DNA from: Bdellovibrionales bacterium
Lineage (GTDB): Bacteria > Pseudomonadota > Alphaproteobacteria > JAIXQD01
Length of the DNA: 64,000 bases
Assembly: GCA_050248995.1 (NCBI GenBank)
Contig: JBFWRI010000002.1
Span: 17,355 to 81,354, forward strand
Direction: 5' to 3'
Shown: positions 617 to 35,400 of the stretch, in pieces
How the letters are laid out: every line of letters starts with the position of its first letter
Position numbering within the stretch: position 1 is the stretch's first letter
The notes under the pieces: generated by a model
Told to the model about the DNA's origin: nothing
Seen by the model: only the letters and a program-made list of their open reading frames with translations
Databases searched by the model: none
Made by a program: the position numbers and the translations under genes

Positions 617-650
617 AATGATCGAGTAGATTAATCAGCTAATTATAAGA

Positions 651-875: not shown

Positions 876-3625
<2,750 letters not shown>

Positions 3626-3932: not shown

Positions 3933-3959
3933 TGAATGGTCTCATCCACGCGCGGAAAA

Positions 3960-4036
3960 TGGTGGGCCTGGTAAGATTTGAACTTACGACCTCACGCTTA
4001 TCAAGCGCGCGCTCTAACCAACTGAGCTACAAGCCC
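3960..4036 (-). tRNA. tRNA-Ile (anticodon GAT) in the 16S-23S spacer
   Basis: The reverse complement is GGGCTTGTAGCTCAGTTGGTTAGAGCGCGCGCTTGATAAGCGTGAGGTCGTAAGTTCAAATCTTACCAGGCCCACCA. Confidence 0.9.
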
Positions 4037-4122
4037 GCGCTAGACGCGCAATTCTCAAACAGTGAAGGGATACAAAGACGGCGGCAAAGTTTTCGTGAGA
4101 AAACCGTCGTTACAGGCAGTCC

Positions 4123-5626
<1,504 letters not shown>

Positions 5627-17437: not shown

Positions 17438-18784
17438 ATGAGCCAAATTATTCAACCCCGCACCCCTTCCGGCGTTATGGAACTGCTGCCGCGTGACCAG
17501 ATCGCCTTCCAGCGCATCCTGGATATCATACGCTTGAACTACGAACGTTATGGCTTCCTGCCAATCGAAACACCTGTATTTGAAGTGGCCGATGTCCTGC
17601 TGACCAAATCTGGCGGCGAGACCGAGAAGCAAGTCTATTTTGTGCAGAAGACAGGCTCGCTGGAACAGGGCCGCAAGCCCGAGCTTGCGTTACGCTTCGA
17701 CCTGACGGTACCTCTTGCCCGCTATGTAGCCGAACATGAACATGAACTTGCATTTCCGTTCCGCCGTTACCAGATCCAGCGTGTATATCGCGGCGAACGT
17801 ACCCAGCGCGGCCGTGCCAACGAATTCTACCAGTGCGATATCGACATTATCGGCAAGGATAGCCTGAGCCCTGCTTACGATGCTGAATTGCCGGCTATTA
17901 TCAATGACGTCTTTACACAACTTGCTTTTGGGCCGTTCACCATCTGGTTCAGCAACCGCAAGGTCATGCTGGGTTTCCTGCAGGCGAATGGCATCCCGGT
18001 CGAAGCGCAGACACTGGCATTGCGCGAGCTGGACAAGCTGGACAAGAGCACGCCTGAGAAAGTCGCAGCAGCGCTTGTCGCTGCCGGACTGACCAGTGCG
18101 CTGGCCACACAGCTCATGGAACTCGTTCAGCCCGCCAGCAGCAATGATGAAGTCTTGAACCGCATTGCCCGACTGCCGCAGTCGGGCACATTGGCTGAAG
18201 GATACGAAGAATTGCAAATCATGTGCGACGCACTGGCTGCGCAGGGTGTGCCACCGAAGAACGCGCGCCTGAACCTCGGCATCATCCGCGGCCTCGATTA
18301 CTACACCGGCACGGTTTACGAAACCAAGATGGATGACCACCCCGAATTCGGGAGTGTATGTGGCGGCGGCCGGTATGACAACCTCGCCGGCTATTACACC
18401 AAATCGAAACTGCCGGGGGTGGGCCTTTCAATCGGCGCCACACGCCTGTTCGAACATTATCATGCCGCCGGCTTTTTTGCCGACACGCGCAGCACGATCC
18501 AGGTGCTGGTGACGGTGATGGACGAAACACTGCTGCCTGACTACTTGAAGATCGCTCACACATTACGGCAGGGCGGGCTTGCAACCGAGGTCTTTCTGGA
18601 CGGCGGCAAGATGGCAAAACAAATGAAATACGCTGATCGCGCCGCTATCCCCGTCGCTGTCGTCATGGGCGGCGATGAAAAGTCCAAAGGCGCCGTCACC
18701 GTGAAGAACATGAAAACCGGCAGCCAGATAGAGTGCAAGGCCGGCGACATACTGGCCACTGTAACCGCTGAACTGAAGAAATGA
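17438..18784 (+). CDS. hisS: Histidyl-tRNA synthetase
   Basis: Class II aaRS motifs are MELLPRDQ, FDLTVPLARY, YQIQRVYRGERTQRGR...FYQCD and GGGRYDNL, with a C-terminal anticodon-binding domain. The start is at internal Met 17438; the longer ORF from 17045 would overlap the divergent ATPase gene. Confidence 0.85.
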   Translation: MSQIIQPRTPSGVMELLPRDQIAFQRILDIIRLNYERYGFLPIETPVFEVADVLLTKSGGETEKQVYFVQKTGSLEQGRKPELALRFDLTVPLARYVAEHEHELAFPFRRYQIQRVYRGERTQRGRANEFYQCDIDIIGKDSLSPAYDAELPAIINDVFTQLAFGPFTIWFSNRKVMLGFLQANGIPVEAQTLALRELDKLDKSTPEKVAAALVAAGLTSALATQLMELVQPASSNDEVLNRIARLPQSGTLAEGYEELQIMCDALAAQGVPPKNARLNLGIIRGLDYYTGTVYETKMDDHPEFGSVCGGGRYDNLAGYYTKSKLPGVGLSIGATRLFEHYHAAGFFADTRSTIQVLVTVMDETLLPDYLKIAHTLRQGGLATEVFLDGGKMAKQMKYADRAAIPVAVVMGGDEKSKGAVTVKNMKTGSQIECKAGDILATVTAELKK

Positions 18785-21777
18785 GCGTCTGGCACACTCT
18801 TAGCCGCGTCGTTCTGACGACAATCTGGGTCGTCATAATTGCGGCGGTCATTTATGCCATTCACTACGAACTAACAACAAGCCGCCTGCAGGCCGAGCTG
18901 TTCTCGCGCTATGCTAAAAATATGACGTATGAGCTGCAGGACGGCCCCAACCCGAATCTGCCCTATCCCGAAGGCGGTCCATACGATGTGCGCCTGGGCT
19001 ATACTCGTCTACCCAAGATGCTCGACACTTTAACTGTGCAGGGTTTCAAGATCATTCGCCAGCCCCGCCTCTCGCAGCCGCTACAGGAATTCATGGCTAT
19101 GGGCGGGTATGCGATATACCCGGAAAAAACCAGTGCCGGCATCACCATTCTGGGCGCTCAGGGTAACGAGCTGCACAGCCGCCGCTTTCCGACCCGCACC
19201 TTTGCGGACTATGATGAGATACCTCCCCTGGTCGCACAGACGCTTCTGTTCATCGAAAACCGCGAACTACTGGACCCGGCGACGCCGTACCGCAACCCGG
19301 CTGTTGAATGGGATCGCTTCCTGTTCGCAGCGCTGGGCCAGCTGGTGAAAGTACTCAATCCGGGCATGAATATCGGCGGCGGCAGCACACTGGCAACACA
19401 GATCGAAAAGTTCCGTCACTCGGACGAAGGTCGTACGGGCGGCATCCACGACAAACTGATCCAGATGCTATCAGCCTCGGTGCGCGCTTACCGTCAAGGC
19501 CCTCTGACCATGGAAGAACGTAAACGCGTTGTTCTGGATTATATGAACAGTACGCCGCTGACAGCCCGCGCTGGTCTTGGTGAAGTCAACGGCCTTGGTG
19601 ACGGCCTGTGGGCGTGGTTTGGTACAGAACTGAATGATGTCATTGATATGCTGTCCCGTCAGGCTAATGATGTCGAGACCTTCACGCGACAAGCCGAACT
19701 ATATAAACAGGTGCTGGCCCTGTTACTGGCGCAGCGTCGCCCGTCTTACTACCTGATTACCGATCGCGAAGCATTGAATGAACTTGCCAATACTTATCTG
19801 CAACTGCTGTCAACGGCCGGGATTATCACCCCCGCCTTGCAGAAAGTCGCAACGTCATCACCGCTGCGTTTTTCAAGTGAAGTCCATATTCCCGGCGGCG
19901 AAGACTTTGTAGCCCTGAAGGCGGCTAACGCCGTGCGGCTGGCGCTGCTGCGCACTCTCAACCTGAACAGTCTGTATGAACTGGATCGCATCGATGCAAC
20001 GGTTCACAGCACGCTTGATAGCGAAAAGCAGGACAAAGTCATCAGCCTGCTGCAAGACTTGATGGATAAATCGAAGCTGGAAGAACATGGCCTGATCGGT
20101 GAGAATCTTTTGCGGACCGACAATGATGTCAGTAAGGTTATTTACAGTTTTGTGCTGTACGAGCGCACACCTTTCGGCAACGTCGTTCGTGTTCAGGCCG
20201 ATAACCTCGACAAGCCGCTTGATCTGAATGAAGGCGCCAAGCTTGATCTGGGGTCAACCGCCAAGCTGCGCACGCTTGAAACATACCTTAGCGCCCTGGC
20301 CGACCTTTATGACCGTTATAAACAGCTGCAAAAAGCCGATCTGCAGATTGCTCAGGATGACGCAGCCGATAATCTGACGCGCTGGGTAGTCGATATGCTG
20401 CGCGCCTACCCCGATATCACGTTACAGCAGCTACTGGCATCGGCCATGACACGGCGCTATTCCGCCAGCACAAATGAAACATTTTTTACGGGCGGCGGCG
20501 CTCACACGTTTGTAAACTTCCAATCAACCGATAATGGCAAGGTCGTTTCAGTTCAGGAAGCCCTGCGCATGTCGATCAACCTGCCGTTCGTGCGCCTGAT
20601 GCGCGATGTGGTTGGCTATTATATCGCGCAAGGGCCGATTGCGCGGCGCGACATACTTGGTAACCCTGATAATCCTGCGCGCCAGGCCTATCTGGCCCGC
20701 TACGCCGATCGTGAAGGACGCACTTTCCTGAACCGTTTCTACAACGCTTACAGGAACCTGACACCTGAGGCTGCACTGGACAGACTGGCTGGCCGTGGCC
20801 GAAAGACGTGGGAAGCACAGGCAACCATCTTCCGCAGCATCAAACCCAAAGCCGGCCAGACCGCCTTCCGCAACTTTATGACGGCGCGCATGACAACGCT
20901 TGGTCTGGCCACCCCGACTTTTGAGGAAGCAAGCGCACTATACGAAAACTATGGCATGGATAAGTACAACCTTGCCGACCGGGGCTATATCGCCGGCGTC
21001 AACCCGCTGGAGCTTTGGCTTGCCGCCTATATGCAAAGCAACCCCAAGGCATCGCGCGACCAGATCCTGCAGGCCAGCGTTGAAGAGCGCCAGGCTGCCT
21101 ATGAATGGCTATTCCGCACAGGATACAAGGGCGCACAGGATACGCGCATCCGTATCCTGCTGGAGCAGGATGCCTTCAACCGCATCCACCAACACTGGGA
21201 AAAACTTGGCTACCCGTTCGACCACCTTGTGCCGTCACTGGCGACATCCATTGGCAGCAGCGCTGACCGGCCGGGCGCACTGGCCGAGCTGATGGGCATC
21301 ATTCTGAATGATGGCATCCGCATGCCGACAATCCGCGTCAGCGAAATCGAATTCGCCAAGGGCACGCCCTATGAAACGCTGTTGCGCCGCGATGGCGCCC
21401 AACAGGTGCAGGGTGAACGCGTCATACGCAGCGAGGTTGCACAGACATTGAAAGCCGCGCTGGCCGATGTGGTGGAAAACGGTACCGCTAAACGCATGAA
21501 AGGCGTTGTTGTCGACGGCGCGGGCCAACCCGTACCTATTGGCGGCAAGACGGGCACAGGCGACCACCGCTTTGAACTGTTCGGCCCCGGCGGCCGCCTG
21601 ATCTCGTCGCGCGCCGTCGCCCGCACGGCAACGTTCGTCTTCTATCTGGGCGATAAATACTTCGGAACCATTACCGCGCACGTTGAAGGCGAAGAAGCCG
21701 ACAAATACGAATTCACCAGCGGTATGGTGTCGCAGGTCCTTAAAACAATTATCGGAAAAATCGGCCCGCTGTATTAG
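18781..21777 (+). CDS. Class A penicillin-binding protein, PBP1C-like (GT51 transglycosylase plus transpeptidase)
   Basis: It has an N-terminal TM anchor. GT51 motifs are GGGSTLATQIEKF (compare GGSTITQQ) and EERKRVVLDYMN (compare KEEILELYLN). The transpeptidase motifs are STAK, STN and KTGTG. The ATGA overlap with the hisS stop indicates translational coupling. Confidence 0.7.
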   Translation: MSVWHTLSRVVLTTIWVVIIAAVIYAIHYELTTSRLQAELFSRYAKNMTYELQDGPNPNLPYPEGGPYDVRLGYTRLPKMLDTLTVQGFKIIRQPRLSQPLQEFMAMGGYAIYPEKTSAGITILGAQGNELHSRRFPTRTFADYDEIPPLVAQTLLFIENRELLDPATPYRNPAVEWDRFLFAALGQLVKVLNPGMNIGGGSTLATQIEKFRHSDEGRTGGIHDKLIQMLSASVRAYRQGPLTMEERKRVVLDYMNSTPLTARAGLGEVNGLGDGLWAWFGTELNDVIDMLSRQANDVETFTRQAELYKQVLALLLAQRRPSYYLITDREALNELANTYLQLLSTAGIITPALQKVATSSPLRFSSEVHIPGGEDFVALKAANAVRLALLRTLNLNSLYELDRIDATVHSTLDSEKQDKVISLLQDLMDKSKLEEHGLIGENLLRTDNDVSKVIYSFVLYERTPFGNVVRVQADNLDKPLDLNEGAKLDLGSTAKLRTLETYLSALADLYDRYKQLQKADLQIAQDDAADNLTRWVVDMLRAYPDITLQQLLASAMTRRYSASTNETFFTGGGAHTFVNFQSTDNGKVVSVQEALRMSINLPFVRLMRDVVGYYIAQGPIARRDILGNPDNPARQAYLARYADREGRTFLNRFYNAYRNLTPEAALDRLAGRGRKTWEAQATIFRSIKPKAGQTAFRNFMTARMTTLGLATPTFEEASALYENYGMDKYNLADRGYIAGVNPLELWLAAYMQSNPKASRDQILQASVEERQAAYEWLFRTGYKGAQDTRIRILLEQDAFNRIHQHWEKLGYPFDHLVPSLATSIGSSADRPGALAELMGIILNDGIRMPTIRVSEIEFAKGTPYETLLRRDGAQQVQGERVIRSEVAQTLKAALADVVENGTAKRMKGVVVDGAGQPVPIGGKTGTGDHRFELFGPGGRLISSRAVARTATFVFYLGDKYFGTITAHVEGEEADKYEFTSGMVSQVLKTIIGKIGPLY

Positions 21778-24700
21778 CGGTTTTTGGCAGCAGCCGGTTG
21801 TGCCTTGGCCGGCGCCTGCACCGACAGGCGCTGTTCCAGTTTCTTCAGGCGGTCTTCAAACTGCCTGTCTTTCACGTTCAGCTTCTGCTGCAGGCTGCCG
21901 TTTTCCTTCTTCAGCGCTGCATTCTCGGCTTTCAGCGCTTTCAGGTCGCCTTCCAGCGCGGCCAGACGCTTCTCAACGCTATCTTTCCAATCGAACAGCT
22001 GGGCGACCTTGGTTTGCAAGCCATCCACCATATCGATCAGCTTCTTGACGGCTTCGATGACCGGCAGCACCAACTTGTCGTATTGTACTGCCATAAAGCC
22101 TTTATCGTCACGGGTGATGACTTCCGGCAATACCTTCTCGACTTCCTGCGCGATCACACCGAAGTCGTCCTTATTATCCTTGTTCCACTTATAGTGAACA
22201 GCCTGCAGGCCTTTCACCACCAGGAAGGCATCGCGTTCGAAATTCTTCACATCATGCTTCAGGCGCGCGTCAGAGCTGTGGAAGTAACCGCCGGTCAGCA
22301 GGTTACCCGTAGCCGCAATAGCATAGCTGGCGTTCACAGCAGAGCCGTTCAGGCCGATCTTGCCGGTGAAAGTCACATCACCGCCGCTGGCTACGGTAAC
22401 ACGGGTTGTGTTTGTCGTACCAATCGTAACAGCAGCAGCTTCCTGCGCCACAATGCTAAGCGTACCAGTACCGCGATGGGTTAAAGTGCTGCCAGCGTTA
22501 GCGCCTGTATTATAACGAAGCAAGCGAAGACCATAATCGGTATAGGTATCATCGCCCACAAAGTCGATATAAGCATACCTGTTGCCCGAGCCCGCGGCGT
22601 TGACGGCAACCTCAGATGCAGAAATTGTGGTCGCGCTACTGGCTGTCAGCGAACCGGTGGCAGAGATAGCCCCCGTTACAGCAAGCGACGATGTTGTTAG
22701 CGTCGCATAAATCGAATTGTTGATGTACCAATAGTGCGCCGTGTCATTGCGATGGCGGTAGGCCCAGTTACCATCAGCGTCCAAAAAGCCGATATCATTG
22801 CTGCTGTTACCATAAACACGACCGCGCAGGGTGCCATCGCTGGTGCGCAGACCCAGGTTTACAACAGAGGCATCATTTGATTGGAGACTGAATAGAGAGG
22901 CGTTATCGCCATACATATATTGCGCGCCTGCAGCGCCGAACTTCAGGTAGTTACTATAAACGTGGACCCCACCGTCAACACGCAGGTTGCCAGGCGTATA
23001 AACACCACTGGTGAAGGCGCCGCCCTGGTTCAGGCGCAGCCAGCTGTCGTTGCTGCGGAAGGCTTCCTTGCCCTGCAGGTTGACGTTGTTGCCGGTTACC
23101 GCCAGCTTAGCCACACCGTCGGTTGTGATGGTCACCGTACCAGTACCGGCATCCACCACTTCCACACTGCTGTCACCCTCGCTGATGGTGTCGGTGGCTA
23201 CCGTGCCGGTAATGGTGCCGCTGACCGTCAGGTCGCCTGTGATGTTGGTGTTACCGGCCACGTTCAGCTTATAGGCGCCCGGATCCGAGATACCGACGCC
23301 AACGTCGCCATCGGCGGCAATACGGATACCCTTGGCGCTGGCCGACCACTGGCCGATTGTCAGGCCGCCATTTTCAACGGTGCCGCTTGAATAGACCAAT
23401 GTGCTGTCGCCAGCCACGACCATCGGGTTCCACGAAGCGCCAGTGCTGTTCGGGTTAATCGCGGTCCATTGCGTGCCATCCGTGGTGCGGATACCCCATG
23501 TCGCCGTCGCGCCCGTACCACGCTGTACGTTCAGACGTGAGCTGCTCATCGAGGTAGTGCCAAGACCAACGTCACCATTGTAGTCAAGGCGCATGCGCTC
23601 GGTTACCGACGCTGCGCCATCGGCTGTTGTGTAGAATACCAGTTGGCCCGGCATATCGTTGGTGCCGGGCGTTGTGCCGACTTCGGCCGTGATGCGCGCT
23701 GTCTCGATCGCCGTAGCGCCATCATAGGCATAGTAGCGAAGGTAACCGACATCGTCGCCCGAGCTGACGGCAGCCGCCGTGGTTGTATCACCACGGTATT
23801 TATAGAAGTTGAAGGTTCCCGGTGTTGCGTCATTGCTGTTGCGCTGCGCCATGAAGCCTGAGCCACCGGTCTCGCCACGCGAACGTATATAGGCGTTGCT
23901 AAGTGTAGTAGCGCTGCTTTGCAGTATGTCTATGGCGTAAGCGGGGCCAGTGGTGCCCATACCCAGGCGGCCACCACCCGTGAAACGGGCGATTTCGGCT
24001 ACCGTTGTATCGGTCGTGCCCGTTGAACCCCCACCATGGCCGCGAATGATGACACCCGAGCTACCGGTACCGGTCGCCGTACCACTGTTCAGGTACAGCC
24101 AGCCGCCATTGGTATCGGTTGCGCCGCTTTGTGCGCCACCGGCGGTAATGAACAGACTGTTGCCGGCGCCGCTTGACGCGCGTTCGATAGCGATGGTGCG
24201 GCTTGCACCCTGGCCAAGGGTAATTATTCCTGTCGTGGGGGCCGTCGTCGTACCGATACCCAGGCCCGTCGCGGTCAGGATCATCGCTGTGCTGCCGCCG
24301 CCCGAGTTATATTGCGTGGCGTTGTGGCTACCGCCGACATACCAGGCGAAGGCACTACCTGAACGGTTGTAAAGCGTGTTACTTTGCACGCCGATGCCGT
24401 AAGAAGCGTTGTACAGGTTGACCATCTGACGCACAGCAGCACCAAAGTTCAACTCGGCCGTGCCCACGATGTCGATATCATCAACATCAACCGTCAGCGC
24501 GGCAGTGCCGTCAGCTGTTACCGCGATGCTGCCGGTGCCTGCGTCGGTTACCGTAACGCTGCTGTCACCCTGCGTGATGCTGTTGCTGGCCACTGTGCCC
24601 GTTATGGTGCCGCTGACCGTCAGGTCGCCGGTGATGTTGGTGTTACCGGCCACGTTCAACTTATAGGCGCCGGGATCCGAGATGCCGATACCGATATCGC

Positions 24701-27700
24701 CGTCAGAGGCGATGCGCAAACCCTTGGCGCTGGCCGACCATGGGCCGATCGTCAACGCGCCGGTATCAATGCTGCCGTTGCTGTATGTTAACAGGAAGTC
24801 CCCTGCGGCTGTGAGTGTATTTGACGCGCCCGCCGATGCGTTGGGGTTGATTGATAAAAATTGCGTTCCATCGGTAAACTGCGCAGCTGCAGTGGCGCTG
24901 GCGCCGGCCGAACGTATAACATGCAGCTTTGTTGTTGGCGTTGATGTACCAACACCCACCAGGCCGGCCGCCGTTACGTTCAGCGGCAGTGAGCCTACGG
25001 CAGCACTTACGCCAATCCCCAGCACATCATCGGCTGCATCGGTCACATAGAAGTTGGCAAATGGGGTTGTGCCCGTGCCATCCGATTCACGAATAACAAA
25101 GCCATACTGGTCGTCTTCAGGTCGCACTTCGATCCAGCTTTGTGTTCCGCTTCCTGAAACCGTACTAATCACAAGAGAGCCGTTGGCAGCGGTGAAGAGA
25201 TCGGCGATTTCAACCGTTTCGGCGGCACCGCGGATGCGAATACCAGCCGAATTTGACATCGTATCAATATCCAACGGAGTGGCCGGTGACTGGCCGTTGA
25301 TACCGACATAGCCACTGTTGGCTGCAATCAGCGGCGTCACGGCGACGCCCGAAGTATTGGTTGTAATGATACTAATACCCGCAGCGACATAACTTGCACC
25401 TTGCGAAGCCGCAACAGCCTGAATCCATGCCGAGTTGCGGATGGTGCCGCCGCTATCGACGCCGCGGAACATCAAGGTGCCAAGGCCGTCCGATACGCTG
25501 ATGCTGTTATCCGACGGCCGCTTATCCAGAATGAAGTAGGGCCCGGTGGCGTCGGTATTGGTGTTTATAAGAACAACCTGTGAGCCATATGACTGCGCAC
25601 TGCTCATCACGGCAACGCCGCCACTCATATACATCTGCTGCGTACCGCCCGCCGTGAAACCAAGACTGTTTTCACCAACACGGTACATACCCGTATCGTT
25701 GCTGGTATCAGATGCAAACGTATAGGCAGGTGCAGCCGCTGAACCATTGGGCGCATGGATAAAGGCCGTTGATGTAACCACGCCGGCCGTAACTGTCAGT
25801 TCATCAGCGCCGCCGTCGGCATCCAGCACGATGTTACCAGTGCCGGCATCCGTGACTGTGGCATGGCTATCGCCTTCGGTGATGGCATTGCCCGAACCGC
25901 CACCGCCACTAAGAGAATTCAGCGCGGTCCAGCTGCCGCCGCTGTCTTTGTATTCAATCGCACCGGCGTTATCACGGATACCGTAACCTGTGCTGCCAAC
26001 CGTACTATCGAAGTTGATATAGCCGCTGGCCGGATGAACAACGTTGCCCGTAAAAGTGGCCTCGCCGTTCGTTAGATTGATCGTGAAGACATGTGCTTCG
26101 AAAGCGGTTGCCGCCGCGTTCCAGCGCGACAGGTAGAAGACATCGTCCCACGACTGGATATTCATTGCCTTGCCGTTGGCACCATTGTTATCGAGGAACG
26201 CCATATTGGCGCGGATCAAGGCAGCGCCATTTACGTCAAGCTTCATGGCCGGAGAATCGGTGCCGATGCCTACATATCCGGTTGCTGAGTCCGCCGCCAT
26301 GATGGGGTTGTGAACAACGCCACTGAACGAGTCGGTTGTATCCTGCAACAACAACTTGCCAGCGCCATTCAGCGCCCAACGGAAACCTGTTCCGTTAGCT
26401 TGAAGAAGTTCGATATCCGCGTAGTCAGAAGACGAGCGAATGACGCCAGCCACATCAAATTTCGCAGATGGGGTTGATGTGCCCACACCCACATTACCGG
26501 CTGCTGTAATATTAAATGGCAGCGAGCCTGCCGCCGCATTTACACCAATGCCCAGCACATCATCCGTAGTATCTGTGACATAGAAGTTGGCATAGGTAGT
26601 CAACGTAGAACCGTCTGATGCCCGCAGAATAAGGCCCGACGCATCGTCTTCGCCCCGCAGGTCAATATAACTGCTTGTTCCGGTGCCGCCCTTGGTGCTG
26701 ATAATTAAAGGACCGTTCGCGCCGACAAAAAGATCGGCGATTTCAACCGTTTCTGCCAAGCCGCGCAGACGCAATCCCGACGAGTTTGAAGCGGTATCAA
26801 TATCCAGCTTCGCGCCACTAGCACTGGCTGTGCCGATCGCCACGTTACCGGCCGGCATCAGGGCAATATCGCCGGCGTCAGTCGACAGGCGGAACTCAGC
26901 GCCGTTACTCATTGCCAGCAGGCCGTAACGGTCATTGCCTGTATCGTAGAGCTGCACGGTCTTGCCGTCACGCATATCGAACGACGAATTCATGCGGATA
27001 TCGCCGCTGCTGGCGGCAATCGCCACGCTGCCGCTGTCATCAAGGTTGAAATCAAGATTAACCGCGCCATCCAGCGTGATGGTGCTGCCGCTGTTGCTGA
27101 TGATTTCACCGGCAGCCAGCGTTAACGGAACAGCCGCTGTAATGCCGCCGGTCAAAGCCGTCATTACCGCAACACCATCAACGGTTGTTACAACGCTGCC
27201 CGTGCCGGCGTCGGTAACGACGACGCTGCTATCACCCTCGCTAATGCTTGTCGTACTACCGCCACCACCGCAACCGGTGCAGGTACCGCTAACCGTCAGG
27301 TCACCAGCGATAGTGACGGTGCCATCCGATGCGATTGTCAGTCGGTTATCTGTGCCGTTTGTCTTAAACGCCATCAGGTTGGTGGCGTGGTCATAGCGGA
27401 TTTGGCCGACGTTATCATCGGCATCATCGCCGAACATGATGTAGTTCATATTCGCAGCCGGTGACAGGAAGTTCAGTGCGATGTCGGCGTCATCTTCTAT
27501 GGTTATCCCGTTTGAACCATATCCGTGCGGCGTACCGCCACTGGCGCCACTGTATATATGCAGCTTGGCCAGTGGGGTGATCGAGCCACCGATACCAACC
27601 CGGCCGCTGCTGTTAATGCGCATGCGCTCGGTTACCGAGCTGGCGCCATCAGCTGTGGTGAAGAACATCAGGCGGCCTGGCATATCGTTGGTGCCTGGCG

Positions 27701-30458
27701 TTCCGTCAACGGCCGCATAAATCTGCGCCCCAGGAATACCCGCCGCGCCATCATAGCCATAGAACGTCATATAACCAAGGTGATCACCCGACTGTACGAT
27801 TGAACTGTTGCGATACTTATAATAAGCCAGGCCGCCACCCGATGCGTCGTTTGATGTGTCAACAACCTGATAACTGGCGAAGTTGTCACTTGTTACCCGA
27901 ACTGTAGAGTTGGCGCCGGAGCGGTATACGTTCAGGGCCGCGCCATTCGCCGCGCCGCCGATGCCCACATCACCGCTGGCGTCGATGCGCAGGCGCTGCG
28001 TACCGGCGGTTGCAAAACTCAGCTCGTCTGTACCGCTCAGATACATGCCGTTCGTGTCATCTGACGTAAAGCTATAACTGGGCGCAGCGGCCGAACCGTC
28101 AACCGCCAGCACGCGCACGCCGGTATCATCACCAATGGTGCCACCGTCAACATCGTCACCGCTAACGGTCAGCACCGCCGGCGCCCATGCGCTGCCATTA
28201 TATTTCAGGTACTCACCGCTATTCGGGTCGGTGGTTGAAACCGCTATACCCTGAATGGCGTCCACAACCGTGGTCAGCGTAATGTTGCCCGTGCCATCGA
28301 ACGAAACGCCTGTTGCATCAGCGTCACCGCTGGCGCCGATGGTGCGGGCTGTCTGCAGGGCGGTCGCCGTGCTGGCGTTACCCGTTAAGGCGCCGACAAA
28401 ACTGGACGCCGTAACAGCGCCGGTTGTGCCGTCGATCGTCATGCGGTCCACACCGTTAGTGCGGAAAATAAGGTTGCCTGTGCCCAGCGACGCCATACGC
28501 AGGTGGCCGTTACCGCTGGCACCATAGGCCGAGATTTCAACCGGTGTCGTGGTGCTGATGCCGCCGGTCATGCGGAAGCTGCGATCTGCACCGGCCGTAC
28601 CGGCGATGCGCGCCTGTTCTTCGTTGTTGATCTTGAAGATGATCAGACCGTCTGCATCGTCAACTTCGACGCCACTGTCGCCGTCGCCAATGGTGGAGCC
28701 ACTTGATACAGCGGCCCAGGTGCCGTCACCCCGCAGGAACAGGTTTTCTTCGCCCGCCGCTGGAACCGGCACACCGCCTAGCGTCCCGTCATCACCCGAC
28801 GTTGCCCCGCTAAAGGCCGGGACTTCCGATTGCATGATAGCGGCAGCCGTGTAGGCACCCGCACCGGTGCGTTTTACGAACCCCGTGCTCGAAAGGCCGG
28901 CAAGACCAGCAAGTTCAGCACTATAGGCCTGCACGTCACTGCCAATCGCCACACCCAGATTGGTGCGAGCGCCCGCGGCTGTGCCAGCCCCTGTACCGCC
29001 TGATGCCACTGGCACCACACCTGTAATATTACTGCCATCCACACTGCCGGCACTGCCCGACACGTTACCGGTCACGTTACCCGTCAGGTTGCCAACGAAG
29101 TTCGTGGCGGTGATCGATCCGTCCGCCGTGATATCTCCGGTTACGCCCAACGATGCTGCTGTAATGTCGGTAGCAGCAAGATCGCCCACTGTCGCATCGC
29201 CGGCCGTCAACGCACCCAGTGTGGTCGCCCCGGTTACGCCAAACGTACCGGTGACTGTGGCGTTCGTTGTTACACTTAGCGAGTTAAGTGTTGAAAGGCC
29301 GCTTGAGGCTAAGGTTGTGGTCGATGTCGCGCCCAGTGTCGTGGCGCCAGCTGTCAGTGCCGCCAGCGTTGTTGCGCCATCCACTTCCAACGTGCCCGAT
29401 AAACCCGCATTCGTTCCTGAAATGTCGGTAACAACGCTAAGCGCCGCACCGCCGGTGCCACCAATGCTACCTGTGGTAATCGACGTAGCGCTGAAACTGT
29501 TGGCGCTGGCAACTGCCACAGCCGTATCGCCTTCAACCAGCAAGTCACCGTTAACAACCAGATCACCACGGAAGCGACCGTCACCACCAATGTCCAGGCT
29601 TTTACTGGTATCAACACTGGCCGTATCAAGACCGACGGCCACACGCGCCGACGAAGGATCAATACCGAAACCGAATGTACCACCGCCCTGCGCCTGCCAT
29701 GTGGCGCTGCGAGCCATCACGTTAGCGACCGACATGAATTCGACCTTATCGTCGCTGCCGCTGGCCGGCAGGTTATCGGTCGCATCATCGCAATCGGTGG
29801 CCAGAATGCCGTCAGCGCCAGCTGAAATGATGGCGATTGAGGGTTGATCGCGATCGGCCTGCAAATTTTCCCAGCGGCACATGATGTAATAGCGACCCCA
29901 CGGGTCAAGCTGGCGCACACCGCCATCGGTCGGGATCGCGCCGACAGACTCGGCCGCACCCTGCGCAGCCACTTCGGTGATGGCAACGCTGCCGCCGGAA
30001 TCTTTCGGGATGCGCGCCGCGTCAAGCGTGTTCCAGGCGACAACAGCCGGCGGATCAAGCGTTAGCGTTCCACTGTTCATCAGTGAGCGTGACGACACGA
30101 CTTCGCTGGCCATGCGAATCTGGTTACGCACCGAGTTGTCAGCGGTGATTTCCACATTCGAACGCAGAATTTGTGTGTAGCCGGTGAACAGTACCGTACC
30201 CGCGATACCAGCCAATGCGATGATGTACAGAATGGGCGCCAGCGCGAAACCAAGCATCATCCGCGCGGCCCACGATTTTTGCGGGCGCGCACGCGCACAA
30301 TTCGAGAGGCGCGATGCTTTTTTCATGACATGCCATTTTAAGGCCAAACGGGTTAACAGCTCCTTATCTCGTGCATTTATCGTCTTGAAGCGGAACGATT
30401 TTGGTGAATGAACGGTAAAAAATGGGCAGCTTTTGAGCTTTCCCGCCGGTCTATGCAC
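21774..30458 (-). CDS. Giant 2894-aa modular fibre protein with three parts:
- a TadE/TadG-like N-terminal membrane anchor;
- a long Gly/Thr/Ala/Ser/Asp-rich repetitive fibre;
- a C-terminal S74-type tail-fibre intramolecular chaperone domain plus coiled coil
   Basis: The N-terminus has a basic stretch followed by MMLGFALAPILYIIALAGIAGTVLF, which resembles the TadE_N pseudopilin motif. The body has repeated GT(S/A)GTG and TDAGTGS units and large internal duplications. The C-terminus HSSDARLKHDV...FGVIAQEVEKVLPEV...VQYDKLVLPVIEAVKKL matches the endosialidase/tail-spike chaperone (Peptidase_S74) pattern. A heptad coiled coil LAALEGDLKALKAENAALKKEN follows. The start could be at 30326 (MKKASRL...) or 30260. 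Confidence 0.8.
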   Translation of the reverse strand: MHRPAGKLKSCPFFTVHSPKSFRFKTINARDKELLTRLALKWHVMKKASRLSNCARARPQKSWAARMMLGFALAPILYIIALAGIAGTVLFTGYTQILRSNVEITADNSVRNQIRMASEVVSSRSLMNSGTLTLDPPAVVAWNTLDAARIPKDSGGSVAITEVAAQGAAESVGAIPTDGGVRQLDPWGRYYIMCRWENLQADRDQPSIAIISAGADGILATDCDDATDNLPASGSDDKVEFMSVANVMARSATWQAQGGGTFGFGIDPSSARVAVGLDTASVDTSKSLDIGGDGRFRGDLVVNGDLLVEGDTAVAVASANSFSATSITTGSIGGTGGAALSVVTDISGTNAGLSGTLEVDGATTLAALTAGATTLGATSTTTLASSGLSTLNSLSVTTNATVTGTFGVTGATTLGALTAGDATVGDLAATDITAASLGVTGDITADGSITATNFVGNLTGNVTGNVSGSAGSVDGSNITGVVPVASGGTGAGTAAGARTNLGVAIGSDVQAYSAELAGLAGLSSTGFVKRTGAGAYTAAAIMQSEVPAFSGATSGDDGTLGGVPVPAAGEENLFLRGDGTWAAVSSGSTIGDGDSGVEVDDADGLIIFKINNEEQARIAGTAGADRSFRMTGGISTTTPVEISAYGASGNGHLRMASLGTGNLIFRTNGVDRMTIDGTTGAVTASSFVGALTGNASTATALQTARTIGASGDADATGVSFDGTGNITLTTVVDAIQGIAVSTTDPNSGEYLKYNGSAWAPAVLTVSGDDVDGGTIGDDTGVRVLAVDGSAAAPSYSFTSDDTNGMYLSGTDELSFATAGTQRLRIDASGDVGIGGAANGAALNVYRSGANSTVRVTSDNFASYQVVDTSNDASGGGLAYYKYRNSSIVQSGDHLGYMTFYGYDGAAGIPGAQIYAAVDGTPGTNDMPGRLMFFTTADGASSVTERMRINSSGRVGIGGSITPLAKLHIYSGASGGTPHGYGSNGITIEDDADIALNFLSPAANMNYIMFGDDADDNVGQIRYDHATNLMAFKTNGTDNRLTIASDGTVTIAGDLTVSGTCTGCGGGGSTTSISEGDSSVVVTDAGTGSVVTTVDGVAVMTALTGGITAAVPLTLAAGEIISNSGSTITLDGAVNLDFNLDDSGSVAIAASSGDIRMNSSFDMRDGKTVQLYDTGNDRYGLLAMSNGAEFRLSTDAGDIALMPAGNVAIGTASASGAKLDIDTASNSSGLRLRGLAETVEIADLFVGANGPLIISTKGGTGTSSYIDLRGEDDASGLILRASDGSTLTTYANFYVTDTTDDVLGIGVNAAAGSLPFNITAAGNVGVGTSTPSAKFDVAGVIRSSSDYADIELLQANGTGFRWALNGAGKLLLQDTTDSFSGVVHNPIMAADSATGYVGIGTDSPAMKLDVNGAALIRANMAFLDNNGANGKAMNIQSWDDVFYLSRWNAAATAFEAHVFTINLTNGEATFTGNVVHPASGYINFDSTVGSTGYGIRDNAGAIEYKDSGGSWTALNSLSGGGGSGNAITEGDSHATVTDAGTGNIVLDADGGADELTVTAGVVTSTAFIHAPNGSAAAPAYTFASDTSNDTGMYRVGENSLGFTAGGTQQMYMSGGVAVMSSAQSYGSQVVLINTNTDATGPYFILDKRPSDNSISVSDGLGTLMFRGVDSGGTIRNSAWIQAVAASQGASYVAAGISIITTNTSGVAVTPLIAANSGYVGINGQSPATPLDIDTMSNSAGIRIRGAAETVEIADLFTAANGSLVISTVSGSGTQSWIEVRPEDDQYGFVIRESDGTGTTPFANFYVTDAADDVLGIGVSAAVGSLPLNVTAAGLVGVGTSTPTTKLHVIRSAGASATAAAQFTDGTQFLSINPNASAGASNTLTAAGDFLLTYSNGSIDTGALTIGPWSASAKGLRIASDGDIGIGISDPGAYKLNVAGNTNITGDLTVSGTITGTVASNSITQGDSSVTVTDAGTGSIAVTADGTAALTVDVDDIDIVGTAELNFGAAVRQMVNLYNASYGIGVQSNTLYNRSGSAFAWYVGGSHNATQYNSGGGSTAMILTATGLGIGTTTAPTTGIITLGQGASRTIAIERASSGAGNSLFITAGGAQSGATDTNGGWLYLNSGTATGTGSSGVIIRGHGGGSTGTTDTTVAEIARFTGGGRLGMGTTGPAYAIDILQSSATTLSNAYIRSRGETGGSGFMAQRNSNDATPGTFNFYKYRGDTTTAAAVSSGDDVGYLRYYAYDGATAIETARITAEVGTTPGTNDMPGQLVFYTTADGAASVTERMRLDYNGDVGLGTTSMSSSRLNVQRGTGATATWGIRTTDGTQWTAINPNSTGASWNPMVVAGDSTLVYSSGTVENGGLTIGQWSASAKGIRIAADGDVGVGISDPGAYKLNVAGNTNITGDLTVSGTITGTVATDTISEGDSSVEVVDAGTGTVTITTDGVAKLAVTGNNVNLQGKEAFRSNDSWLRLNQGGAFTSGVYTPGNLRVDGGVHVYSNYLKFGAAGAQYMYGDNASLFSLQSNDASVVNLGLRTSDGTLRGRVYGNSSNDIGFLDADGNWAYRHRNDTAHYWYINNSIYATLTTSSLAVTGAISATGSLTASSATTISASEVAVNAAGSGNRYAYIDFVGDDTYTDYGLRLLRYNTGANAGSTLTHRGTGTLSIVAQEAAAVTIGTTNTTRVTVASGGDVTFTGKIGLNGSAVNASYAIAATGNLLTGGYFHSSDARLKHDVKNFERDAFLVVKGLQAVHYKWNKDNKDDFGVIAQEVEKVLPEVITRDDKGFMAVQYDKLVLPVIEAVKKLIDMVDGLQTKVAQLFDWKDSVEKRLAALEGDLKALKAENAALKKENGSLQQKLNVKDRQFEDRLKKLEQRLSVQAPAKAQPAAAKNR
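23165..23375. repeat. Intragenic repeat A, copy 1; about 90% identical to 24556-24766
   Basis: Read directly from the sequence. The shared stretch is gctgaccgtcaggtcgcc...ggtgttaccggccacgttca...ataggcgcc.ggatccgaga...cccttggcgctggccgacca. It encodes SDPGAYKLNVAGNTNITGDLTVSGTITGTVA in the giant protein. Confidence 0.8.
24556..24766. repeat. Intragenic repeat A, copy 2
   Basis: Lies 1391 bp from copy 1, which is about 465 aa in the protein. The short plus-strand mirror ORFs 23011-23274 and 24460-24666 end in nearly identical peptides, confirming the duplication. Confidence 0.8.
24900..25300. repeat. Intragenic repeat B, copy 1; related to about 26470-26830
   Basis: The shared stretches are gatcggcgatttcaaccgtttc, ggtatcaatatcca and gcagc.cttac.ccaat.cccagcacatcatc...atagaagttggca. 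It encodes the module LR(L/I)RG(L/A)AETVEIADLF...ANFYVTD..DDVLGIGV. Confidence 0.7.
26470..26830. repeat. Intragenic repeat B, copy 2
   Basis: See copy 1. The spacing is about 1570 bp. Confidence 0.7.
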
Positions 30459-30591: not shown

Positions 30592-30668
<77 letters not shown>

Positions 30669-30685: not shown

Positions 30686-32347
30686 TTAGAAGCCTTTGGG
30701 TGGCGCTGGCGTAAACAGCCCATAGTCGTTATTCAGAACACGACGGCGCGGGCTGGCGGCCTGGCTGGCAGCTTCAGGCGTATTCAGTTCGACAGCAGCG
30801 CGATGCAGGTCTAGCGGCGCGCCAACCAGCGCCTGAAGATCACCAAGATTATAAGCAACGTTCTCGGCCGTAGCCGCAAGCTGGCCAGCCGTATCCGCAT
30901 CGATATTCACGCGCATATCATTACCAACACCATTGGCGCTACCACCAAGCAATGCCGCATCTTGCGGAACTGCATAGGGCGCTGATGGTTGCAAGCCATC
31001 AAGCAGCGACGGGTTAACCGGGATTGCCTGCAGCATTTCATACTGAAGTTTCTGGGCGCGCGCCTGCAGAGCAGCGGCGTCCTGTAAATGAAGCATGTTG
31101 TTCGGCACAGCCCCGAAGTATGCGCCTGCCGCAACATCCGGAATTTTTATTTTATTGCCGGCGGCGATTTCTTTCATCAGCGCGGTGCCGTATAGCGGCG
31201 ACTTACCGCTTATTTCTGAATCAAGCACATTCGAGAACTCGGCCGAGGCTTTTTCCATAGCATCAGCAACAGCTCCCAGTTTAGCATCCTGCGCGATTCC
31301 CGGGGGGACACCTTCACCTTCGTAGACATCGTAGATTTCATCAACTTTCTGAATCAGTTCACGCGCCTTGTTGGCTGATAATGGTTCGCCTGTCACATCA
31401 TCTTTGATAGCATGCCGAACGCGCTCAAGCTCGTAAGTAGCTATCGCATCGTTCATCGCAGTGACAAAAGAGGCCTGTTCTTCAGGCGACAATAAGTTTG
31501 CAAGCGCAGCCTGAAGTGTGTCATCAAGGTTATTAGTATATGACACATCACCATCGAGGTCAGCGACACCGGCTATTGCATTTAAGTCGCCTACATTTAA
31601 GCCGTTTGCGCCATCACCAACGACACCACGTGCATGTAACGGCGAGACAGGGACGCTAGGGTCGTTATCAACATCCGGACCTAGGCCGATGCGATTGAAG
31701 CCCGGAGAGACATTAGCGGGAAGATCGTCATCAAGGTCAGGCCGGGGGCCGAGGCCGTCCGGTTGCGGTTTGGTGGAATTCTGTTTTGCACCAGCGCCGG
31801 GCTTGCCGCCTTTGTTCTTGTTAAAAAACTTCAGCAGCGGTTTAAGAACCCAGTGGAACAAGACAATCGCCAGACAGACGAGCGCTGCACCCGATGTAAA
31901 GCTGGCAAGCAGGCCGGACACTGACATTGCTGCGCCAGCATTTCCACCAATACCGAATAACGTCAGAGCCTGCGGCGGCAACATCCCGATCACCACATTG
32001 CTGGTCAGGGCAACAGCCGCACCGCCACCAGCGATCATGGCACCGTTAGAAACCAGTACGCTTCTAAATTCCAAATCTTTCTTTTGCTTCGCTGCTGCTT
32101 CCGATGCGGCCGCATTGTTGGCCAGCGCTGCTTCTGTTGCCGCGCCGCTTTGTGCCTGAATCTGTGCTTGCTGGGCAAGCAGGTGCATCATCTGTTCATG
32201 GCGCGCATCAGCGGCTTCATTTGCTTCGCGCGCCTGCTGCTCCATCCGCGCCGCGAAATCGACAGGCGTCCCCGCTGCCGGCGCCGCAGCATTACTTGCG
32301 GGTGGTGCTTGTGTTCGAGGATCTTGCGTTGTTGTTACCAAAGCCAA
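30686..32347 (-). CDS. Hypothetical Ala/Gly-rich membrane protein (553 aa)
   Basis: It uses a TTG start with no clear SD. The Ala/Gln-rich N-terminus is followed by 2-3 TM helices (GAMIAGGGAAVALTSNVVIGML and LVCLAIVLFHWVL) and a long acidic soluble region. I see no family motif. The gene is separated from its neighbours by AT-rich spacers. Confidence 0.55.
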   Translation of the reverse strand: MALVTTTQDPRTQAPPASNAAAPAAGTPVDFAARMEQQAREANEAADARHEQMMHLLAQQAQIQAQSGAATEAALANNAAASEAAAKQKKDLEFRSVLVSNGAMIAGGGAAVALTSNVVIGMLPPQALTLFGIGGNAGAAMSVSGLLASFTSGAALVCLAIVLFHWVLKPLLKFFNKNKGGKPGAGAKQNSTKPQPDGLGPRPDLDDDLPANVSPGFNRIGLGPDVDNDPSVPVSPLHARGVVGDGANGLNVGDLNAIAGVADLDGDVSYTNNLDDTLQAALANLLSPEEQASFVTAMNDAIATYELERVRHAIKDDVTGEPLSANKARELIQKVDEIYDVYEGEGVPPGIAQDAKLGAVADAMEKASAEFSNVLDSEISGKSPLYGTALMKEIAAGNKIKIPDVAAGAYFGAVPNNMLHLQDAAALQARAQKLQYEMLQAIPVNPSLLDGLQPSAPYAVPQDAALLGGSANGVGNDMRVNIDADTAGQLAATAENVAYNLGDLQALVGAPLDLHRAAVELNTPEAASQAASPRRRVLNNDYGLFTPAPPKGF

Positions 32348-32462: not shown

Positions 32463-35400
32463 TTATGAGCCTCGGCCGCCCACGCCACCCCCATTGCTGC
32501 CACCGCCATTATCTTGCCCACCACCACGACCTAATGGCGCGTTAGCTCCACCACTTCCGCTAGGAGCAGGTTCTGCGGCAGCAGGAGCTGCGGGAGCTGC
32601 CGGCGGCGGGGAGTTACTAGGCTTAATCACTGCCTCAACCCTATCCTGAACACCCCCTGTAAAGGTTGCACCTTTCCTAGCTTCCTGGAACTTACTCTCT
32701 GACTCCTCAATGATATGCTGCTGCTCGCCAATCTTGCCTTTGATTTCAGCCTGCCTGCCAGCATTGGGCTCGGCATAAAGTTCTTTTGTTAAACGCGCGC
32801 GTTCCTTAACCGCAGCCGAACGACGCCCCCAGTGCTCACTTGCTTCAGCACGCGCTTCAGCACGCGCTTCACCAATGCGACCTTGTGCAGTCATGCGCCG
32901 CGAAACTGGTGACGCTATTTTGCCACCAAGATGGCCAAGACCACTGCTTGCTGTTGCGCCGGCACGACCCAGCATGCGGCCAATTGGGCCACCACCGCCT
33001 GAGCCACCGCCACCTTTTCCGCCGCCGCCACCACCCTTATCGCCACCGCCACTACCACGGCCGCTGATTTTGGGCGTATCGCCATCTTCAACAGCGTCGC
33101 CACTACCGCCCCTGCCACCACCACCGCCGCCTTTGAGCAGACCTTTCGTGGCGGGCGCGACAACACTTTTGTGAACAGCATCTGCTGTGGTGCCGATGGC
33201 CTTCATACCGCCCTGCGCCATATCAACAACGGCAGCTTCGTTGATATCGCTGTGGGCGTTGTAGAACGAGTAGCCCTGCTGGCCGAACCAACCCATCGAC
33301 TTGTTGGCGATTTCATCGATGATCTTGAAGCTGGCCTGGCACATGCTGAAGGCGTTGAACGCATAGATCAGCGCGAAGATGATAGATGTGATAACAAATA
33401 CCTTGCCATCACCCCACACGGCATCCAGCGCCGAGCGGAACATCCAGTTCAGCAGGAACATGCCGATGGTCAGCATGATAATCGAACAGATCAGGCCGAT
33501 AACCAGCAGCACAGGCCGCAGCGCGATACTGAACAACATCGAATAACCGGCCTTGGCGTTCCCCATAATACCTTCCGCCTTGGGCGACAGGTGCGCCAGT
33601 GCGAACAACGGCATACCTACAATCGCTTCCAGCACGGCCAACAACCACGAGAACGTAGACAGCAGGAAACGGATCATTGGTGTCAGCGGTAGAATAAAGG
33701 CCAGCATCAGCGCGCCGCTGAACAGCAGCGGCCCCATCATGAACACCATGGCCAGGCCGCCAGTGCCGAAAATCATCGACAGGCCGATGAATGACAGCGC
33801 GATCCAGTACAGGGCGTGGCCGAACGCAAACAGGTTCGGCAGCGGGTCGCGCATACTGGGCGCAACTAGGTTCATGAAATAGTCTTTATCGAAGCTGAAG
33901 AAATTGCGGATGCTGGCAAGAACGCCAGAAATACCACCGGCAGTCGCGGTTTCGTTCTCGCCGTCATCAAAGGGCTCAAACCTTCTGTCATCTGTTAAAG
34001 AGACAATGTTTGATATCATACTGGGTCTTTCTTCCAGCGCCTCATAACCAATTTGCAATGCGTTTGTCACCATTGCCGAGTAGGGTTTACCGGCATGAGC
34101 GTAGCCCTGGCTGTCATCAGCGCCGCGTAAGCTGCGCATGAAACGGCACCTGTTATTAGGCACGCCGTCGACCACACTACCTAAACCTTCGCACTTCAGC
34201 TTATCAGTCTCCGTTTTACTTCTGAAAACACTGCCTAGCTTGACGGTCGGACTGAGGTCATAAAGATCGTGGATCTGCTTTTGCGCCATGGCGATGCGCA
34301 TATAGCGCGAACCGGCCGCCATCCAGCCTAGCGGGTTATCGCTTTCCATTTCGGTTCTAAGGTTGGAAAGGATCGCGCGATATGTTGCATCGGCCTGCTC
34401 TGTGATCGCTGCTTCATATTCCGCGACCGCTGCATAAATGGCCGCAACTGCCTGTATGTCCGTATCGGGCACCGGCTTGCCATGGCAGTTGCGCGAACGC
34501 TCGTCCGTCATCGACAGACCAACCTGCCCCACGGGTATGCCTAGCGGCATGGTTTGCGGCCAGCGCAGGTTTGTGCGCGGATAGGCATTATACATCGCCG
34601 TGAGAGGCGTAAAATTTGGAGTCGTTGCATTGGCGTCGCTGTACCGGCCCGCAAAAAGAACGCCGGCAAAACCACACACAGCATCATCGATTGCCTTAAA
34701 ATGTATATCAATCAGGGTTACCATATCTGTGCGCGCCTGACGTATAACCTCCGCTGTTGTTCGGTCAGGCCCGGTGATTGTCTCGGCTACCGTCTCGCCC
34801 GGGCTGGGCCATTTCACCGTGCCGCACAGGTTTTTATCAAGGCCAGGACCATACTTGATTTGTGTCTCGCCTGAAAACCGCAGCAGGTTGAAGTGACCGC
34901 GCACAACTTCTGAATCTGTCCCCGTCAGCAGGTTGCTGTCACCTGTTCCACTAAGCGTTTTCTGGTTGATATCGATTTGGCACAAGCGGATAAGTGTCAA
35001 ATCATGGATATGGTCTCCAAGCGTTGTCGATGGGCGGAAGGGAGCCCTTTCACCTTCGGCCGGGTCTTCGGGCGGTAGGAATGTGTCAGCTGCCGCAATC
35101 CACACCCGTGACGCAAGACCCGAACCAAGTTTAGCAACTTCCAGCACGGCATACTGTGCTGTATTCAGGCCGGTGCCCAGCGGCACCAGCAGGCCAATAG
35201 CTAACACCAGGCGCAGCGGTGCCCACACTTGATCGGCGCCGCCCAGCGGCTTACCTTCCCATGCAGCTGTTACAACAAGGTGCAACACATGATACAACAC
35301 CATGAACGACGCGAAGACTAGAATGGCGCGGCTGTAAAAGCCCAGCATGGTGCGCAGCAGTTCCTGGAATATGCCGCTCGCCTCGCCCCCTAGAGTATAC

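Follow-up and report, generated by a model that had tools for sequence, protein, structure and literature searches.

The window analysed in this study comprises 64,000 nucleotides (nt) of contig JBFWRI010000002.1 (positions 17,355 to 81,354 of the forward strand) from assembly GCA_050248995.1, deposited as a Bdellovibrionales bacterium. On its reverse strand it contains a giant gene, unbroken in its reading frame across 8.7 kb, within which DNA segments recur in three families, here called repeats A, B and C. All amino acid (aa) positions are numbered on the open reading frame (ORF) of 2894 codons that begins with GTG; the real start is likely to be ATG 30326 (2850 aa, the form of the protein-library copy P0121) or TTG 30347 (2857 aa, the gene call in the Logan assembly), the latter with AAGGAG 11 nt upstream. 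The gene is laid out as follows:

21774..30458 (-): giant ORF, 2894 codons counted from GTG
29631..30275 (-): N-terminal family-defining domain, aa 62-276 (HMMER hits, alignment and AlphaFold2 model)
27969..30263 (-): conserved N-terminal block of anchor and neck, aa 66-830, collinear with the closest relative P0122 (blastp, 52% over 795 columns)
22341..27968 (-): variable mosaic shaft, aa 831-2706, with matches to PHROG families, cyanophage tail fibres and Bd2133
23136..28691 (-): five super-module starts, I(S/T/G)(E/Q/D)GDSxVxVxDAGTG at aa 590, 1072, 1526, 1961 and 2425
22119..22274 (-): predicted Peptidase_S74 intramolecular chaperone, a self-cleaving domain (Pfam PF13884; SDARLK from aa 2729)
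21777..22118 (-): C-terminal helical coiled-coil tail of the chaperone, recognised in the sequence and conserved in P0122, P0124 and P0128

Super-modules follow each other at a spacing of 435-482 aa, and a capping-loop motif, GxVGIGTxxPxxxLxV, was located in 12 copies between aa 829 and 2699 by regular expression and motif hidden Markov model. All three repeat families sit within the variable shaft:

23164..23385 (-): repeat A, copy 2; protein-level module 22887-23576 (aa 2295-2524)
24556..24777 (-): repeat A, copy 1; protein-level module 24306-24965 (aa 1832-2051), containing the joint GNTNITGDLTVSGTITG / I(S/T)xGDSSV
24936..25273 (-): repeat B, copy 2; protein-level module 24906-25415 (aa 1682-1851)
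26469..26806 (-): repeat B, copy 1; protein-level module 26430-26918 (aa 1181-1343)
23583..23673 (-): repeat C, core of copy 2; module 23091-23987 (aa 2158-2456), carrying YKYR...GTNDMPGQLVF
27612..27702 (-): repeat C, core of copy 1; module 27147-27989 (aa 824-1104), homologous to cyanophage tail fibres and to the beta-helix of Bdellovibrio Bd2133

In a self-comparison with blastn, repeat A showed 82.9% identity over 222 nt at an offset of 1392 nt (464 aa; 230 bits), repeat B 68.3% over 341 nt at 1533 nt (511 aa; 125 bits) and repeat C 85.9% over 92 nt at 4029 nt (1343 aa; 101 bits), and the best off-diagonal match in 40 codon-shuffled versions of the gene scored 34.6 bits. Exactly these three families were recovered by self-blastn and a repeat finder, all copies lying in direct orientation and in frame; a weaker motif of 48 nt is present in five copies. 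The repeats are interspersed rather than tandem, and Tandem Repeats Finder reported only two trivial arrays of 35 nt. An initial annotation of this stretch had placed three families at these positions, with offsets of about 465, 520 and 1340 aa, and had taken them for reused protein modules of a giant fibre gene. This is borne out by the scores and offsets given above and by duplicated modules at 45-59% aa identity; both peptide motifs that it quoted occur twice. Its description of the repeats as kilobase-scale and near-identical has to be abandoned, the longest DNA repeat being 341 nt and the identities 83% (A), 68% (B) and 86% (C). The 90% which it assigned to repeat A is attained only in a core of 90 nt (91%), and its coordinates for A were one base out of register (24% identity when 23165 is paired with 24556, 83% with 23164). 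The annotation's own yardstick for refutation, a minimum of 200 bp with an identity near 90%, is approached by A alone, sufficient in length and short in identity; no DNA repeat of at least 100 nt at 90% identity is present in the gene.

The modules to which the repeats belong were defined by chunked, masked blastp and codon alignments, a plain blastp self-comparison having given the diagonal only. They extend over 160-270 aligned residues, with the following identities, synonymous divergence (dS) and ratio of non-synonymous to synonymous divergence (dN/dS):

Module A (aa 1832-2051 and 2295-2524): 56% aa and 60% nt identity, dS 1.57, dN/dS 0.26, longest exact run 28 nt
Module B (aa 1181-1343 and 1682-1851): 59% aa and 60% nt identity, dS 1.90, dN/dS 0.19, longest exact run 23 nt
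Module C (aa 824-1104 and 2158-2456): 45% aa and 53% nt identity, dS 1.87, dN/dS 0.31, longest exact run 21 nt

The modules are old duplications under purifying selection, in which synonymous divergence is saturated. Sharing of codons between copies was assessed in columns with identical residues only, with the expectation taken from the gene's own codon usage in 20,000 simulations. The A core (aa 1896-1968) displayed 40 identical codons compared with 22.5 expected, a number reached in 0 of the 20,000 simulations (P<5e-5), and the C core (aa 899-958) 24 compared with 14.5 (P about 9e-4); all flanks were at the expectation from codon usage, the excess being confined to these two cores. The A core straddles the joint of two super-modules, where ...GNTNITGDLTVSGTITG... 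is followed by I(S/T)xGDSSVxVxDAGTG. The most economical explanation for both cores is a tract of later gene conversion, or a patch of younger origin, at a conserved joint.

These traces bear on the view of the initial annotation that the repeats are active substrates of RecA-type unequal recombination, which would vary the fibre between strains and endanger the assembly. Unequal exchange at in-frame offsets of 464, 511 and 1343 aa would indeed leave intact shorter or longer fibres, the A core retains 91% identity over 90 nt with an exact run of 28 nt, and the codon-identity excess points to past exchange; moreover, relatives range from 500 to 4607 aa in length, and in 21 of 36 related loci the contig ends within the gene. 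On the other hand, the modules are 53-60% identical at the nucleotide level with saturated dS, and repeats of 100 nt or more at 90% are missing from the gene. Minimal efficient processing segments and mismatch-repair barriers are such that a divergence of 17% cuts homologous exchange by orders of magnitude. Because the copies diverge by 17-32% and their exact runs do not exceed 28 nt, unequal exchange at A, B and C should be rare, and a strain-level switching of length is unlikely. Length differences among the relatives accompany complete replacement of the shaft, not a change in unit count; strain variants were not found in the searched collections, and a Logan contig with the gene, described below, is identical to the window. 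What stands of this view is past recombination, seen in the A and C cores, and a large variation of fibre length across the family; as present-day substrates the repeats are poor (dS 1.6-1.9), and we consider ongoing unequal recombination improbable.

With regard to the assembly, a Logan contig of run SRR27751816, located via the neighbouring gene for a penicillin-binding protein (PBP)-like protein, covers window positions 8781-30618 with 0 mismatches in 21,838 nt, the whole gene included, possibly from the same reads. Logan contigs are products of a de Bruijn assembly with k=31. Because this contig spans the gene at 100% and no exact repeat in the gene reaches 31 nt, a collapse is argued against, and the hazard foreseen in the initial annotation does not apply to the window. 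It has some merit for the family as a whole: in the 21 loci mentioned (of the 36, L006-L041) contigs end inside the giant gene, including contigs of 302, 208, 57 and 51 kb, and the genes look like frequent breakpoints in the assembly of metagenome-assembled genomes (MAGs), which short contigs or heterogeneity among strains may also explain. Long repetitive genes being a known assembly problem, and many contigs of relatives breaking in the gene, the repeats or the gene length themselves might be attributed to spurious duplication or collapse; next to the intact frame, to copies that are diverged and under purifying selection and to the traversing Logan contig, such an artefact is hardly credible.

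The protein was assigned to fibres by its C-terminus and its shaft. Its sole Pfam match is Peptidase_S74 (PF13884, aa 2729-2780; 49.5 bits, cutoff 22), in which the catalytic Ser-Lys motif SDxxxK (defined in PMC10769870) is present as SDARLK at aa 2729-2734 and followed by a coiled coil that would be freed by self-cleavage. PHROG tail-fibre families match the giant protein (E 1.8e-57 and 6.5e-35), annotated cyanophage tail fibres were matched via module C in a tblastn search of phage genomes, and the C-terminal modules led in a database search to metagenomic proteins of 280-750 aa, many of them with S74. When the whole protein was compared with the PDB by phmmer, two chains were returned, namely Bdellovibrio Bd2133 (8ond_A, E 8.6e-7) and the intramolecular chaperone auto-processing (ICA) domain of MyRF (7dc3_A, E 2.4e-6). 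The 12 capping-loop motifs fit the consensus V-G-G/N-pi-x-x-P-x-x-x-L described for the mosaic adhesive trimeric (MAT) fibres of Bdellovibrio and for MyRF (PMC10769870). The shaft thus appears to be a string of MAT/phage-type units, predicted to be beta-helical by homology to the beta-helix region of Bd2133, and the fibre is expected to be trimeric. For 370 residues of Bd2133 a length of about 150 Å is reported (PMC10769870), and scaling to the approximately 2,400 shaft residues would, as a rough estimate, bring the fibre to around 100 nm.

The same likenesses could indicate the tail-fibre gene of a prophage, tailocin or gene-transfer-agent remnant, the repeats then being ordinary tail-fibre repeats: in addition to the strong PHROG matches, the similarity to cyanophage tail fibres amounts to 30-50%, the S74 chaperone is of the kind found in K1F and T5 fibres, and a tRNA-Val gene adjoins the 5' end of the giant gene. 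The surroundings are those of a chromosome. One side is occupied by the convergent PBP-like gene, hisS, a PilT-like ATPase, GGDEF/EAL genes and polyhydroxybutyrate (PHB) genes, the other by tRNA-Val, an ORF of 553 aa, a DotA/TraY-family protein, TrcR, genes for ATP-binding cassette (ABC) transporters, phosphofructokinase and ribosomal protein genes, and no phage genes were detected among the flanking ORFs of at least 150 aa that were scanned. The GC content and composition of the giant gene match its flanks, its N-terminal helix and domain are without a match in viral structures, and this domain defines a chromosomal family with housekeeping synteny conserved in many MAGs. A prophage origin was rejected on this context, as the gene lies outside any cluster of virion structural genes and has housekeeping neighbours on both sides with synteny in relatives, and a phage-derived element of any of these kinds is a very improbable explanation.

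When 1.84 billion representatives were scanned with HMMER without an index, 154 proteins with the N-terminal domain were retrieved, 48 of them at E<=1e-30, and this domain of about 215 aa, common to all, defines a family that comprises no fewer than 154 cluster representatives. A word-index protein search had yielded nothing with the N-terminal 290 aa and short fragments only with a profile, which was misleading because the index-free scan found these 154; word-index negatives are not reliable for low-complexity-flanked domains of this kind. Members are 500-4607 aa long, 18 of them at least 2000 aa, and an S74-type ending is present in 19 of the 59 members of at least 900 aa. Many members without S74 (P0133, P0141, P0171 and others) end otherwise, in a Gly-rich tail or, in P0171, in a His-rich repeat block. 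When GTDB species genomes were scanned with patterns of the domain alignment, the 36 loci obtained were all from Alphaproteobacteria MAGs, several of them labelled Micavibrio or Bdellovibrionales and one a complete chromosome of 1.64 Mb, with ORFs that reach more than 3,500 aa. Micavibrio is a genus of bacterial predators; we suspect the MAGs labelled Bdellovibrionales to be Micavibrio-like as well.

Two relatives illustrate how the members differ. In the closest, P0122 (2084 aa), the first 786 aa match the window protein at 52% and the last 170 aa at 46%, and no similarity was detectable over the shaft by blastp; with P0124 (4607 aa) the ends alone are common. P0124, a gene of locus L007 on the 1.64-Mb chromosome OZ251993.1, repeats in its shaft a Cys-containing unit many times (...CATVGAG(A/T/S)(L/I)R(W/Y)N(G/A)(T)(A)FxGC(D/N)GT(A/S/T)W...), with DNA copies about 66% identical. 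In each of 12 relatives compared at the DNA level, the gene contains between 2 and 28 pairs of internal direct repeats that measure 100 nt or more; nearly all of these pairs fall within 65-88% identity, and a single pair (131 nt) reaches 90%; in its diverged internal repeats the window gene is typical of the family. Length variation in the family is accordingly accompanied by wholesale replacement and reshuffling of shaft modules, and is not a matter of the copy number of one unit. Whole-protein pattern scans of genome, viral and metagenome contigs returned no close relative and no close strain variant, and literature searches no published description of a pilin-anchored S74 fibre or of the family.

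Upstream of the giant gene, 13-14 loci share a set of Peptidase_S11, phosphoribosyltransferase, DUF2336 and BacA genes, and two metagenomic loci have the PhaR/GGDEF-EAL/hydrolase neighbourhood of the window; judged by this synteny, the family is a chromosomal, vertically inherited locus. The order Peptidase_S11, phosphoribosyltransferase, DUF2336, (BacA), giant gene was seen in L009, L010, L012, L017, L019, L021, L022, L025 and others, DUF2336 being the immediate neighbour in 14 loci and additionally in L003 and L004.

The N-terminal domain displays an invariant G70-F71...P75, a hydrophobic helix and then DPWGxYY...SAGxDG...GDD; invariant or nearly so in the family are G-F-x-x-x-P-x-L-Y, the hydrophobic stretch, D-P-W-G, C, W, S-A-G-x-D-G and D-D. 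Features of a class III-type signal are present, namely a basic leader, Gly at -1, Phe at +1 and about 20 hydrophobic residues. None of the 24 aligned members departs from G and F, which the hydrophobic stretch follows, and all 24 have the GF...P motif. AlphaFold2 (AF2) with the family alignment gave a model with a predicted local distance difference test score (pLDDT) of 82 and a predicted template modelling score of 0.71, which was used in place of that from the single N-terminal sequence (pLDDT 40); a helix of 51 residues (12-62) is followed by a small beta-sheet, so that the model resembles a type IV pilin in its overall shape. In hhalign the domain aligned with three GspG sequences entered by hand, with 64% probability and E 6.4e-5 over 125 columns, including the G-F start, DPWGxY and SxGxDG. 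The only recurrent Pfam family was T2SSG, in six of the 24 member domains (best E 0.0017), no member domain exceeded the Pfam or NCBIfam thresholds for pilin families, and the best PDB profile match of the anchor was the N-terminal helix of a geopilin (E 0.17). Conserved pilus-assembly genes were not seen beside family members in the neighbourhoods of the recovered loci, and of a linked prepilin peptidase, assembly ATPase, platform protein or secretin the window holds only an orphan PilT-like ATPase. Support for a relationship to pilins and GspG is moderate, and the anchor is described here as pilin-like without being classed as a pilin.

Taken together, we hold it to be probable, at roughly 0.75, that the repeats are old, interspersed, in-frame duplications of shaft modules in the hypervariable middle of a chromosomal giant surface-fibre gene of S74 type. 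Several points weigh against it or its parts. The beta-helix and the trimeric state are drawn from homology to Bd2133, S74 and phage fibres; the reads of the Logan contig are possibly those behind the window's own assembly; and the patches of codon identity could in principle reflect selection at the nucleotide level instead. Concerning the anchor, position +5 is an invariant Pro (P14 of alignment A1), not Glu, the window protein's own N-terminus had no Pfam, NCBIfam or PDB match, and Foldseek returned nothing for the anchor model from the PDB, nor from viral models.

For the fibre so understood we infer that it trimerises, cleaves itself, is displayed on the surface and serves in adhesion or prey recognition, and that the joint acts as a shuffling point. 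From the cell outwards the protein would consist of the pilin/GspG-like anchor, the neck, about five super-modules, a receptor-side tip and the C-terminal Peptidase_S74, the super-modules being assembled from few unit types, marked by capping-loop motifs and linked via the conserved joint. Presumably, the modules were duplicated long ago and then kept under purifying selection, and short patches at joints were homogenised later, by gene conversion or exchange of younger patches; because of this later homogenisation only cores of 90-220 nt would stand out in the DNA. The long C-terminal part would be exported and trimerisation would begin at the S74 end, where the chaperone, by analogy with phage K1F and T5 fibres and Bdellovibrio Bd3182, may cut itself off at Ser2729. 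Held by its N-terminal domain, the fibre would present the distal modules for adhesion, and the conserved joints would let modules duplicate, exchange and occasionally homogenise, which would produce the repeat pattern.

A bolder and doubtful extension is that of giant 'fibre-pilins'. Here, the GspG-like domain, with its invariant G|F site and, like tip-located minor pilins, no Glu5, would be processed at G|F and loaded on a machine resembling the type II secretion system (T2SS) or the type IV pilus; a short (pseudo)pilus, started or capped by the three domains of one trimer, would drive the phage-type trimeric fibre of about 100 nm through the outer membrane, Micavibrio-like predators or episymbionts would thereby recognise prey or hosts, and shaft and tip would be retargeted by shuffling at the repeat A joint.

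Other features of the window were recorded as well. A complete rRNA operon (16S, tRNA-Ile, tRNA-Ala, 23S, 5S) at 650-5624 (-) and genes for ribosomal proteins and the elongation factors EF-Tu and EF-G at 43.9-59.1 kb confirm the core chromosomal setting. The convergent PBP-like gene (18781-21777, +) encodes a PBP1-like protein of 998 aa, whose matches to transglycosylase and transpeptidase are weak and fall well short of the NCBIfam cutoffs, and overlaps the giant gene by four bases (21774-21777). The orphan secretion ATPase (16409-17356, -; 315 aa), PilT/PilU-like and matched by T2SSE at E 3e-31, below equivalog cutoffs, lies 4.4 kb from the fibre gene and is not conserved beside family members elsewhere.

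On the upstream side, tRNA-Val (30592-30668, +) is on the strand opposite to the fibre gene, which is therefore not in one operon with the genes upstream. Beyond it follow the ORF of 553 aa (30686-32347, -), without a family match, and the DotA/TraY-family gene (32463-35897, -; TIGR04346, E 7.7e-67), coding for a multi-pass membrane protein of 1144 aa whose C-terminal tail is long and rich in Gly. The window showed no further Dot/Icm genes. A DotA-like ORF lies about 5.7 kb upstream of the fibre gene in L024, and a VirD4-like gene directly after a family member of 240 aa in L005. The DotA/TraY-like gene, 2 kb upstream, was considered as a functional partner of the fibre gene; this reading was not adopted, as the gene recurs in one other locus only and the opposite-strand tRNA lies between.

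The repeats alone are ordinary, diverged module duplications being typical of mosaic fibres, and here they put neither the assembly nor gene stability at risk. The family, a variant of the S74/MAT-type fibre theme, is more interesting than the repeats. S74 fibres, outside phages characterised mainly in Bdellovibrio, are now linked to a second bacterial lineage including relatives of Micavibrio, and are seen on a different, pilin-like anchor. If this anchor is a pilin, it suggests a route by which a very long folded trimer may get to the cell surface and provides candidate prey- or host-recognition proteins for many uncultured alphaproteobacteria. From the patchy conversion at a conserved joint, a concrete model of fibre rebuilding can be drawn that lends itself to testing.

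Among characterised systems, the closest relatives are the MAT fibres of Bdellovibrio, in particular the S74 subgroup with Bd3182 and Bd2133 (PMC10769870). In common with these, the window protein is a chromosomal, non-phage fibre with a constant N-terminal part, a mosaic shaft that is presumably beta-helical, and a C-terminal S74 chaperone with SDxxxK; it shares the capping-loop motif, has a direct sequence match to Bd2133, and belongs to a family split into members with and without S74. A connection to predators also recurs, some loci with the N-terminal domain lying in MAGs labelled Micavibrio. However, it is two to three times longer, occurs in Alphaproteobacteria instead of Bdellovibrionota, and is present as a single copy in the window, whereas B. 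bacteriovorus has a set of 21 paralogues. The N-terminus may set it further apart: MAT proteins are described with a signal peptide and a beta-rich N-terminal domain of about 130 aa (PMC10769870), compared with a long hydrophobic helix and a GspG/pilin-like mixed domain here.

Phage fibres with a C-terminal chaperone (K1F endosialidase, T5 pb1, cyanophages S-CBP1 and S-CBP4) likewise carry the S74 domain, cyanophage tail fibres share module C (YKYR...GTNDMPG...), and in both cases evolution is mosaic, with conserved ends and an exchangeable middle or tip. In contrast to them, the giant gene is not part of a phage genome, its product is much longer than most, and a membrane pilin-like N-terminus replaces the virion-attachment domain.

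GspG and type IV pilins resemble the anchor in a basic leader ending in Gly, then Phe and about 20 hydrophobic residues, in a helix of about 50 residues packed on a beta-sheet (in the AF2 model) and, for GspG, in the aligned block DPWGxY...SxGxDG...DD. They differ in that the anchor has its Pro at +5, continues into a fibre part of more than 2,500 residues and is without conserved adjacent pilus-assembly genes. Tip-located minor pilins such as GspK lack Glu5.

The ICA domain of MyRF, finally, provides a membrane-tethered example of an S74-type, trimerising and self-cleaving domain, properties that are predicted for the window protein. MyRF, however, is a eukaryotic transcription factor whose membrane span lies on the C-terminal side of the point of cleavage, so that cleavage frees the N-terminal part, whereas in the window protein it would free the chaperone only.

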